Below, piece after piece: positions 36,580 through 37,548 of a DNA stretch of 58,773 nucleotides. The position numbers and the translations under genes were made by a program. Below the pieces are notes generated by a model. The model ran no database searches. It saw only the letters and a list, made by a program, of their open reading frames with translations, and was not told where the DNA came from. The number at the start of each line of letters is the position of its first letter. Position 1 is the stretch's first letter. Source of the stretch: Anaerolineae bacterium (lineage in GTDB: Bacteria; Chloroflexota; Anaerolineae; B4-G1; DUEL01); contig JASFBC010000278.1 of assembly GCA_036172315.1 (NCBI GenBank), forward strand, positions 1 to 58,773. The letters run 5' to 3'.

Positions 36580-36597
36580 TTTCCTCCTCCTGACGCC

Positions 36598-36746
36598 ATC
36601 ACGGCAGGACGGCCAGTTCCTGACTCCCCTGCCCAGATCCCGGCATGTCGTTTGGGGATTGGGGATTGGGGATTGGGGATTGGGAATTGGGAATTGGGAA
36701 TTGGGAATTGGGAATTGGGAATTGGGAACAGGTTTGTTTGGCGCAC
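36598..36746 (-). mobile_element. Miniature group II intron-derived element, copy 2 (centre replaced by a heptamer repeat)
   Basis: Starts GTGCGCC and ends with DV/DVI-like ...CATGCCGGGATCTGGGCAGGGGAGTCAGGAACTGGCCGTCCTGCCGTGAT. Removing it restores GTTA|GGC. Confidence 0.6.
36652..36728 (+). repeat. Heptamer tandem repeat (TTGGGGA)x4 (TTGGGAA)x7
   Basis: Eleven contiguous units counted directly. Confidence 0.95.
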
Positions 36747-36809
36747 TAACGACACCGAGCGGGGCCGCCGCGAACGAAGCGAGCGATCGGCTCCAGCGAG
36801 AGGTTAGCC
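36747..36809 (-). mobile_element. Integron attC recombination site
   Basis: The minus strand reads GGCTAAC CTCTCGCTGGAGCCGATCGC...GCGGCGGCCCCGCTCGGTGTC GTTA, an imperfect palindrome with R'' and R' boxes 12 nt after the toxin stop. Confidence 0.7.
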
Positions 36810-36821
36810 TGCCGTATCTCT

Positions 36822-37082
36822 TTAGAAGAAACGCTCGTACTCATCGTGACTGCCAATCCAAAACCAAGTCACCGTGTCACCTTCAAGTACACCCACAGCG
36901 CGATACCCGCGTGTGACTCTTATAGACCAGACATTCTCTTCACGGTTGATGCACTTGAAACGCAGAGACGGATGAAAGGGGTTCTGTGCCCACAGGCGAT
37001 AGGCTTTCCTGGCACTGCGCTTAATATCTTCGCCGAGAGATTCGTATGCTGCCCAGAAAGATGGCAAAGTGGCCGACTTCAT
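36822..37082 (-). CDS. RelE/ParE-like toxin
   Basis: 86 aa, basic; [24 protein letters not shown] and [15 protein letters not shown] overlap with the antitoxin; lower GC than the flanks. Confidence 0.82.
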
Positions 37083-37312
37083 AAGCGCTCATAGTCCATC
37101 GGTTGCGCGTGCCCCTGGGCAATTTCTTGCTTCGCACGACGGGCAGCCGCCACCAATTGAGGTTGCGTTCGCTCAAACAGGCTATCCCATTTCAGTTCAT
37201 CTTGCAGGTCAGCAAGATACTCGCGCAGATGCTCAACCACCTGCTCTTGTACCGATTCGGGCAAGGATTCTAGCATTTTTGTCACTGTCATAATGGCTGT
37301 CGTGGATGCCAT
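37079..37312 (-). CDS. Cognate antitoxin
   Basis: 77 aa acidic ORF directly upstream of and overlapping the toxin; LQDELKWDSLF and AQPMDYERL. Confidence 0.75.
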   Translation of the reverse strand: MASTTAIMTVTKMLESLPESVQEQVVEHLREYLADLQDELKWDSLFERTQPQLVAAARRAKQEIAQGHAQPMDYERL

Positions 37313-37388
37313 AATTACACCCCTTTCAAAATCCTTGATGACATCCTGCGTGGATTGTACTTACCGCGTTTGATGAAGCAAGGCGGGC

Positions 37389-37524
37389 CTCACGGCAGGA
37401 CGGCCAGTTCCTGACTCCCCTGCCCAGATCCCGGCGTGTCGTTTTCCCGCGTACGGTTGGGCGGTTAGCCCTTACCCGATGGGGACTTTCACCCCACAAG
37501 AAGCATCGGGTTTGCTTGGCGCAC
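37389..37524 (-). mobile_element. Miniature group II intron-derived element, copy 1 (5' domain I fused to domains V-VI)
   Basis: GTGCGCC...GGGGTGAAAGTCCCC...GGGTAAGGGCTAACCGCCCAACCGTA is joined to CGCGGGAAAACGACACGCCGGGATCTG...CCTGCCGTGAG. 55 bp are shared with copy 2 (1 mismatch). Confidence 0.65.
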
Positions 37525-37548
37525 TCACGATATGCCGCTTCTATTCTA

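Follow-up and report, generated by a model that had tools for sequence, protein, structure and literature searches.

Introduction

Fragmented or open reading frame (ORF)-less bacterial group II introns were reportedly treated by Simon et al. 2008, and group IIC-attC introns are said to be the subject of Quiroga 2008 and of Leon and Roy 2009. From the class 1 integron literature, single cassettes with an attC are known at secondary (non-attC) G/TT sites, expressed from a host promoter (here and below, a slash within a site marks the point of insertion or crossover). The IIC-attC introns (S.ma.I2 and its relatives) are described as inserting into the bottom strand at the R'' box of attC, at TTGT/T and antisense to the cassettes (PMC3001079, PMC7923331), with a small class C ribozyme that recognizes a hairpin and an intron-binding site 1 (IBS1) of 3-4 bp (PMC3001079). 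UHB.I2, H.ha.F1 and H.ha.F2 are reported as attC-associated IIB-type introns with endonuclease-less intron-encoded proteins (IEPs), oriented like the cassettes (Sonbol and Siam 2021, Mob DNA 12:8, PMC7923331), and H.ha.F1/F2 as truncated, non-functional class E fragments in toxin-antitoxin (TA) cassettes with an attC-like structure upstream (PMC7923331). Decay products of mobile introns, according to the same paper, outnumber intact copies in bacterial genomes (PMC7923331). Here we analyze a stretch of 58,773 nucleotides from an Anaerolineae bacterium (the window; contig JASFBC010000278.1 of assembly GCA_036172315.1), in which a TA gene pair followed by an attC lies between the genes pepP and metG and is bracketed by two short elements, El1 (136 nt) and El2 (149 nt).

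An earlier reading made from the letters alone (the sequence-only reading) had taken El1 and El2 for miniature group II introns that fill both attC core sites of the cassette and lock it in place. We propose instead, with a probability of roughly 75%, that they are decayed relics of a sense-strand attC-homing intron lineage, located at both borders of an ectopic TA cassette in the metG leader. The locus is thus a case of ordinary decay of a sparsely described sense-strand attC-homing lineage and not a new miniature mobile element. Our sample comprised 145 genomes of the order and 401 of the class, besides the source assembly itself (3.3 Mb in 315 contigs, 94.6% complete).

Relationship of the two elements to group II introns

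El1 and El2 share a 5' end of 16 nt, GTGCGCCAA(G/A)CAAACC, a 16-mer with exact matches only at these two places in the assembly, and both begin GTGCG, as expected from the group II 5' end GUGYG. They also share a 3' block of 55 nt, 98% identical and found only at these two places, 790 bp apart. When re-read on the minus strand, the boundaries, common ends and order given by the sequence-only reading were correct. Its claim that both elements end in AY applies to El2, which ends in AT, and not to El1, which ends in AG. The DV-DVI 3' end that it had described is partly there: domain VI (DVI) and the 3' half of domain V (DV) are present in both elements, El1 additionally retaining the DV upper stem, and the DV 5' half is missing. 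The interior of El2, between the 5' ~18 nt and the DV 3' strand, consists of an 11-unit array of the heptamer TTCCCAA/TCCCCAA (minus strand; positions 36652-36728 of the window), which is also present at C55:98-211 and C147:3493-3568 of the same genome and in several relatives; this satellite appears to have overwritten the El2 interior.

The evidence for descent comes from related copies. El1 has matches at 37 places in 29 of the 401 class genomes, and its nt 1-74 at 12 places in 10 of the 145 order genomes, with 79-92% identity (BLAST) between the 5' 74 nt and copies in other genomes. The matching copies score 107.2 (G035), 103.1, 93.5, 87.1 and 61.7 bits on Rfam RF02005 (cut-off 49) and 48.1 and 47 bits on RF00029 (cut-off 40). 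At the other end, the 3' 62 nt of El1 are 78-84% identical to the DV-DVI of C189, G014 and G089, and the shared 3' block aligns with the DV-DVI of the own-genome copies on C189 and C227 and of G014, G089 and G198 (78-84%); the C189 DV-DVI scores 34.6 bits on RF00029. The full-length relative encoding a reverse transcriptase (RT), for which the sequence-only reading had proposed a BLAST search of related genomes, exists as the G035 copy, with an RT ORF of 366 aa, open at the contig end (RVT_1, E 7e-35). Database relatives of this RT have 431-434 aa and carry RVT_1 and GIIM only, and thus no endonuclease domain. Judged by this homology to copies that pass the curated RF02005 and RF00029 models, El1 and El2 derive from a group II intron, as the sequence-only reading had held, and we see no reason to question this descent.

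Members of the lineage are scattered over one bacterial class (29 of the 401 genomes sampled), with relics of every size. In the source genome, decayed copies lie at C189:15405-15729 and at C227:~390-816, the latter having lost its first ~25 nt. In G014:C142 (L028), half of an attC, the 5' one, is immediately followed by a 5'-truncated copy with an RT fragment. An independent 250-nt relic is found on the minus strand of G240:C533 (L299) at an attC-like site, ...GCGCCGTTG/GTGCG...CGCGAT/GGCGGC, with intact termini and a 3' breakpoint inside DV. At L040 (G052:C182) and L046 (G045:C156), the RF02005 domain of the family and a partial DV are followed by the 5' region of a second intron (RF02003, 122.8 and 90.1 bits) and then by another RF00029 match, which looks like one intron nested in the DV/DVI of another, i.e., a twintron-like arrangement, in two genomes. 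Copies of three families, L043 (G089:C41 150-984), L300 (G198:C28) and L303 (G165:C49), are ORF-less, measure 800-835 nt, have a full ribozyme and are alignable end to end; these, unlike El1 and El2, are candidates for RT-less introns truly mobilized in trans.

Loss of ribozyme parts and of mobility

Little of the ribozyme is left in either element. Of domain I, El1 retains intron nt 1-74 and El2 ~18 nt, and the candidate exon-binding site 1 (EBS1) of the lineage, located near nt 340 in the ~800-nt copies, is outside what they retain, so that neither element has the domain I recognition region. The DV 5' strand of the family, GAGCCCGGT, which bears the catalytic AGC triad, is missing from both. 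In the branch-site region both read CCTGCC, compared with CCTACC in 7/7 other copies read, i.e., the branch A has become G. Neither contains an ORF, and their fold energies equal those of shuffled sequences (z -0.31 and -0.22).

Model searches gave a similar picture. No match to RF00029 was obtained on El1 or El2 even at E<=10, and Rfam at gathering thresholds returned nothing from the region except a distant tRNA; at E<=10, it returned a 12.6-bit partial RF02003 match on El1 and chance miRNA/snoRNA matches on the heptamers. A covariance model of DV-DVI (R2), derived from five complete members of the family, scored El1 at 19.1 bits (E 0.026), none of the lower DV helix being paired, and it did not find El2. 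The covariance-model check that the sequence-only reading had proposed has therefore a divided outcome: functional support for DV/DVI is largely absent, descent is supported through the related copies, and the attC is supported by a model of its own (R1, below). With domain I, the DV 5' strand and the branch A lost, El1 and El2 are not working ribozymes; to judge from these missing parts, they are relics, unable to splice or move, and persist as passive sequence.

This bears directly on the proposal that El1 and El2 are ORF-less mini-introns, spliced and mobilized in trans by a full-length relative, whose insertion into the core sites locks the cassette. The proposal draws on the exact 5' and 3' ends kept at GT(T or G)A/G, on the common reduced form, and on the ORF-less ~800-nt full-ribozyme copies in three other families, which indicate that the lineage yields RT-less derivatives. 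Reverse splicing, however, requires domain I with its EBS as well as DV, and what is left is 74 or ~18 nt of domain I, no triad, and a G in place of the branch A. The shared deleted form amounts to two neighboring copies, and none of the BLAST matches in the 401 class genomes crosses the El1 deletion junction (74/75). The 94.6%-complete assembly gave no match to RVT_1, to GIIM or to the RT of the family, and an RT-bearing copy could be unassembled in it (a 315-contig metagenome-assembled genome, MAG, and a multi-copy element). A search of genome and metagenome contig collections with the 16-mer spanning the El1 junction, a pattern too short for collections this large, matched at least 119 and 118 stretches, respectively, and none of the 237 matches listed had the intron 5' end upstream; five of the junction matches had been flagged by a loose test and were spurious. 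The idea of locking is weak as well, because the intron begins with G and an insertion leaves both GTTAG and the G/TT crossover in place; the upstream partner, besides, is no attC. We regard active mini-introns at this locus as extremely improbable.

A different account of the reduced form is a template jump of the RT during retrohoming, out of DV and into the 5' part of domain I, so that the minis were dead on arrival and did not decay slowly. The 3' breakpoints of El1, El2 and the G240:C533 relic all fall within ~15 nt inside DV, with intact termini in each case, and the El1 junction offers microhomology (domain I CCGTAC against CCCGGT before the DV upper stem). On the other side, the El2 interior is a heptamer satellite that is present elsewhere, so that its breakpoints may be secondary, the branch-A loss common to both elements would presuppose a parent unable to form a lariat, and three cases are too few for a breakpoint hotspot. 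Birth in the deleted state seems to us quite unlikely.

The cassette, its attC and the integron

On the minus strand the order is GCGGCATATCGTGA, El1, GCCCGCC... with the antitoxin and toxin genes, GGCAGGCTAAC...GGTGTCGTTA, El2, and GGCGTCAGGAGGAGGAAAATG leading into metG. The features, all on the minus strand, are as follows.

37549..38901, minus strand: M24 (Xaa-Pro-type) peptidase gene, called pepP (Pfam Peptidase_M24, E 9e-39, and Creatinase_N), the upstream neighbor of the insert
37543..37570, minus strand: promoter-like site TTGCCC-16-TAGAAT from a consensus scan, overlapping the pepP stop
37525..37541, minus strand: El1 5' flank GAAGCGGCATATCGTGA, like the L'-spacer-R' end of an attC, orthologous to AAGCGCATACCGTTA of G002 (same genus)
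37389..37524, minus strand: El1, 136 nt, intron nt 1-74 (37524..37451) fused to the upper stem and 3' strand of DV and to DVI (37450..37389)
37079..37312, minus strand: ORF of 77 aa, putative antitoxin by its position
36822..37082, minus strand: ParE-like toxin, 86 aa (PF24732 ParE_like, E 8.2e-12, 45.4 bits, cut-off 24.4)
36740..36810, minus strand: TA-cassette attC with R'' GGCTAAC (36809..36803) and R' GTTA (36750..36747), then the first El2 bases (34.4 bits on R1)
36598..36746, minus strand: El2, 149 nt, ~18 nt of intron 5' end, heptamer array (36728..36652), DV 3' strand and DVI (36652..36598)
34819..36579, minus strand: metG, methionyl-tRNA synthetase (Pfam tRNA-synt_1g, E 3.7e-147), whose leader carries the whole insert

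The toxin belongs to a recognized family, and its small upstream partner, which matches no Pfam or NCBIfam family above cut-off, overlaps the toxin start by 4 nt (ATGA), so that the two genes have the make-up of a type II (ParE-like) TA pair in one operon. A terminator scan of the region found none. Between the toxin gene and El2 lies a stem-loop region of 66 nt. A pattern search of the own genome yielded 15 similar attC sites and, in addition to these, a false match on C182 that was dropped, and the attC model R1 was built from 14 own-genome sites with the window's site left out. The alignment of these 14 sites runs from R'' (RYYYAAC-like) through a 5-nt spacer, L'' GCTCCAGCCGAC, a variable loop, L' GCGGCTGAGC and an 8-nt spacer to R' GTTRRRY, the L'' box having an extra base relative to L'. 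On the window's stem-loop, R1 scored 34.4 bits (E 3.6e-7 in the window, 2.1e-5 genome-wide), with two L-box pairs non-standard. Going by this model, the stem-loop that follows the toxin gene is a genuine attC, as the sequence-only reading had supposed.

At E<=0.01, the own genome has 80 sites detected by R1, the window's site ranking 70th among them; most are grouped, with several on one short contig. At E<0.5 in the 58.8-kb window it detected the TA-cassette attC alone, with no match upstream of El1; the earlier claim that both attC core sites are filled thus fails at the upstream site, which is not a recognizable attC. The cassette 5' end, T(G)AGCCCGCC, compares with TTAGCCTGCC (the complement of GGCAGGCTAA) at 9/11 positions when the leading G is included, in agreement with the complementarity to the cassette's own R'' that had been pointed out, a short match that is weak alone. 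An integron integrase is encoded elsewhere in the own genome, at C4:4376-5314 (TIGR02249, 505 bits, cut-off 265), and a partial copy on C43 is divergent from three attC sites. Integrases above the cut-off are present in 15 of 41 related genomes, the source genome (G000) included, and the window's contig is absent from the best 6 of the 9 integrase-like matches in the genome. The TA cassette does not lie in an array beside intI/attI, and an upstream attC is absent. On the strength of its attC, the TA pair is a genuine but lone integron-type cassette outside the integron, and this part of the sequence-only reading is borne out, with no other convincing attC in 58.8 kb.

The integron of this genome appears in the assembly as a large chromosomal one in fragments, with ~80 attC of one family on contigs of 1.5-6.5 kb (C2, C67, C245, C249, C170, C171 and others), the full intI on C4, and three cassettes on C43 from which the partial intI diverges.

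At six loci with homologues of the TA genes in relatives, R1 places an attC beside the pair in one of the six, so that elsewhere the pair is mostly not a cassette of this attC family. At L009 (G008:C345, same genus), the TA pair recurs with 88% identity, flanked by tRNA-like sequences and without an attC, the similarity ending exactly at the start of the window's R''. The TA gene pair thus occurs both with and without an attC.

Target site and class of the intron lineage

The 5' junctions of the lineage are GTTA or GTTG in 11 of the 15 copies read, the exceptions being El1 (GTGA), L042 (ATTG), L045 (CTTG) and L300 (GATA). The 3' exons start with GGC in 7/8 read, or in 8/8 if the last G of El1 is counted as exon; L046 contains a second intron nested in the first, the 3' end of which is omitted from this count. 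In 5/9 other-genome copies with enough flank, an R1 match ends exactly at the first base of the intron on the same strand; the remaining four have no match to R1, a model that is genome-specific. El2 and all five of these copies with an R1 match are thus located at the R' end, on the same strand as R''->R', and not on the bottom strand at R'' as IIC-attC introns are. From these junctions, the lineage homes into the attC R' box on the top, gene-sense strand, at GTTR/GGC. The sequence-only reading had predicted a parent that homes into R' in the sense orientation at GTTA/G, and both the insertion-site counts and the R1 matches that abut the intron start agree with it.

Recognition probably proceeds through pairing between EBS1 and CCGTTR. 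A domain I motif, YAACGGA, is complementary to the exon TCCGTTR where it could be placed (the flanking motif was found in four copies, one of them misplaced) and is a candidate for EBS1.

Group II ribozymes differ in size between classes, and ~800 nt appears too long for class C. The ORF-less full-ribozyme copies of 800-835 nt are conserved across three families, and the G035 copy has ~620 nt upstream of its RT ORF. Judged by ribozyme and RT length, the lineage appears to be IIB-like and not IIC, and the IIC class that the sequence-only reading had brought in is not supported by a ribozyme of ~800 nt. RTs of classes A, B and C in the PDB match the lineage RT alike (124-139 bits).

The ancestral site in the metG leader

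The position of the insert can be read from its relatives. Of 13 same-genus genomes, seven have pepP and metG on a single contig with a spacer of 39-232 bp that contains no TA genes and no El1 or El2; in the remaining six, no contig has the two genes side by side. The pepP 3' end is 82-89% identical to same-genus genomes, and similarity in metG resumes 1 to 15 nt past El2 (query 1304 to 1313), in G002 at query 1304, the base right after El2. Between pepP and metG, G002 has an intact site, CCGTTA/GGCGTCA. Its empty site reads ...AAGCGCATACCGTTA/GGCGTCATCAGGAGG, i.e., the El1 5' flank AAGCGGCATATCGTGA joined to the El2 3' flank GGCGTCAGGAGG, which means that the whole ~950-bp block fills one GTTA/GGC site. 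The window insert and the G002 empty site form a datable before-and-after pair. Excision of El2 in silico yields GTTAGGCGTCA, and G002 reads exactly ...CCGTTAGGCGTCATCAGGAGG at the orthologous place; excision of El1 yields GTGAGCCCGCC, and two other own-genome attC sites end GTTAGCCCGCC and GTTAGCCCGCA.

The ancestral site itself may be an attC remnant. The 17-nt El1 5' flank resembles the 3' end of two own-genome attC sites (13/17 positions, as for the attC on C245), a likeness that is suggestive only: no genome attC matches the flank with <=3 substitutions, and shuffled 17-mers give ~6 chance matches. R1 found no attC in the G002 pepP-metG spacer.

Both promoter-like hexamers at the pepP end are kept in 8/8 same-genus sequences read, with a variable spacer, and TTGCCC-16-TAGAAT is probably the metG promoter. 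The cassette would then sit in the metG leader and probably be read from the metG promoter, in which case a TA module and an essential gene would be co-transcribed.

Across the genus, the short metG leader is an insertion hotspot (pepP-metG spacers L011, L016, L029, L012 and L015). It holds a GC-rich palindromic element in G001, tandem ~26-nt repeats in G004 and 232 bp of unrelated sequence in G008, and a conserved hairpin is present in G011 and G012.

The block could in principle be an assembly artefact, a mis-join via the 46-nt stretch identical in El1 and El2, the true arrangement being pepP, one element and metG, with the TA genes and the other copy in the integron array. Logan contigs of four sequencing runs all break at the common block and none bridges it, and the attC sites of this genome lie for the most part on short contigs that are broken at repeats. 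Against a mis-join, 46 nt is shorter than ordinary reads, the two copies differ by one base inside the block, and the depth of the TA segment (157.8) compares with flanks of 133-140, the block itself (256.6) fitting two copies. Pieces joining El1 to pepP and the TA genes to El1 are also found in a run of a second study (X2). The joint or empty-site form is absent from the contigs of the four runs, contigs that do not bridge the block. We consider such an artefact very improbable.

Origin of the arrangement

Based on these observations, we propose that a promoterless cassette (antitoxin, ParE-like toxin and attC) came to lie outside the integron, between the promoter-like site and the metG ribosome-binding site, where it would fill the single ancestral ...CGTTA/GGCGTCA site. 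Right after GT(T or G)A at each cassette boundary would stand a decayed relic of one group II lineage, the parent of which would have had a ~800-nt IIB-like ribozyme and an endonuclease-less RT, homing into R' on the top strand. El1 and El2 would be sister copies from which domains II-IV, the DV 5' strand, the DVI branch adenosine and all but a small part of domain I have disappeared, and would now be passive in a transcript running from the pepP end through the TA genes to metG. The cassette would have been inserted by the integron integrase (IntI) at G/TTAGGC, and we infer that the two intron insertions took place earlier or later. An intron at the GTTA/G of an attC lies 3 nt beyond the G/TT crossover and hence travels with the next cassette. 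One integrase event could suffice, in which a cassette already carrying the El1 ancestor entered a chromosomal GTTAGGC site that held, or later gained, the El2 ancestor.

Homologous recombination between intron copies would give an identical final sequence, and the two routes cannot be told apart at this locus. In a version that dispenses with the integrase, two intron copies bracketing the cassette recombine, and the resulting intron-cassette circle integrates by homology into an intron in the metG leader. The block indeed starts with an intron 5' end and closes with an intron 3' end at one ancestral target, CGTTA/GGCGTCA, which alone fits the target consensus of the lineage; El1 and El2 are near-identical sisters, and IIC-attC introns have been proposed to help join genes and attC sites (PMC3001079). 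This relocation nevertheless takes three intron copies and recombination on two occasions, the genome has an IntI that looks functional, and IntI insertion at G/TTAGGC with earlier or later intron insertions leads to the same end sequence, with no distinguishing feature. We hold it to be unlikely, if worth keeping in view. It is equally doubtful that bracketing introns serve as portable homology that moves a cassette without an integrase, a view in which the DV breakpoints would mark minis born in faulty retrohoming.

Several points weigh against decayed relics around an integrase-inserted cassette. The El1 and El2 3' blocks are 98% identical and share derived changes, including the branch-A loss, with other copies at <=84%; insertion twice over, each time with its own separate decay, does not readily account for this, and on sequence grounds it argues for gene conversion, DNA-level duplication or an already altered common parent. 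In El1, El2 and the 250-nt G240 relic alike, both termini survive and the 3' breakpoint falls inside DV, and this recurrence, in three cases that are too few, hints at a non-random or biased mode of formation. The site upstream of El1 reads GTGA and not GTTA, and R1 detects an attC neither there nor in the G002 spacer. The linkage over the 46 nt that the two elements have in common depends on the original assembler, the Logan contigs (k=31) breaking there. The intron class comes from ribozyme and RT length alone, and an RT-bearing copy could be unassembled in a 315-contig MAG.

Comparison with known systems

Three mobile layers appear to be stacked at one base of this locus: an ectopic integron cassette, a sense-strand attC-homing intron lineage known from only few reports, and a heptamer satellite, called genome-specific as a mobile layer, though its array is also present in several relatives. 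For annotation, short GTGCG...GAT repeats at cassette borders would be better recorded as intron scars than as novel small RNAs or mobile elements.

With respect to secondary-site cassettes of class 1 integrons, the site described here differs in being also an intron target and possibly an attC remnant, with a presumed involvement of an integrase. Compared with the fragmented bacterial introns, the reduction is extreme (~5-7% of the full element), with both splice-site ends kept, and it is found twice around one cassette.

The lineage resembles the IIC-attC introns in being attC-specialized, with copies often in or beside cassette arrays. It differs from them, as they are characterized in the accounts cited above, by its insertion in the top strand at R' (GTTR/GGC), its sense orientation, its ~800-nt ribozyme and a candidate EBS1 of 6-7 nt.

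The closest published cases appear to be UHB.I2 and H.ha.F1/F2, which we set beside the present locus by strand, position and protein domains. As reported for them, the orientation here is that of the cassette, the position is at or just after attC, and the RT homologues (431-434 aa) are endonuclease-less. According to their published description, H.ha.F1/F2 are truncated at the 5' end and still contain part of the RT ORF, whereas El1 and El2 keep both termini and have lost the interior (136 and 149 nt). The host and the setting are also different from those reported for H.ha.F1/F2, the present locus being a single ectopic cassette in the metG leader of a hot-spring Anaerolineae-type MAG, with the empty site preserved in a relative.

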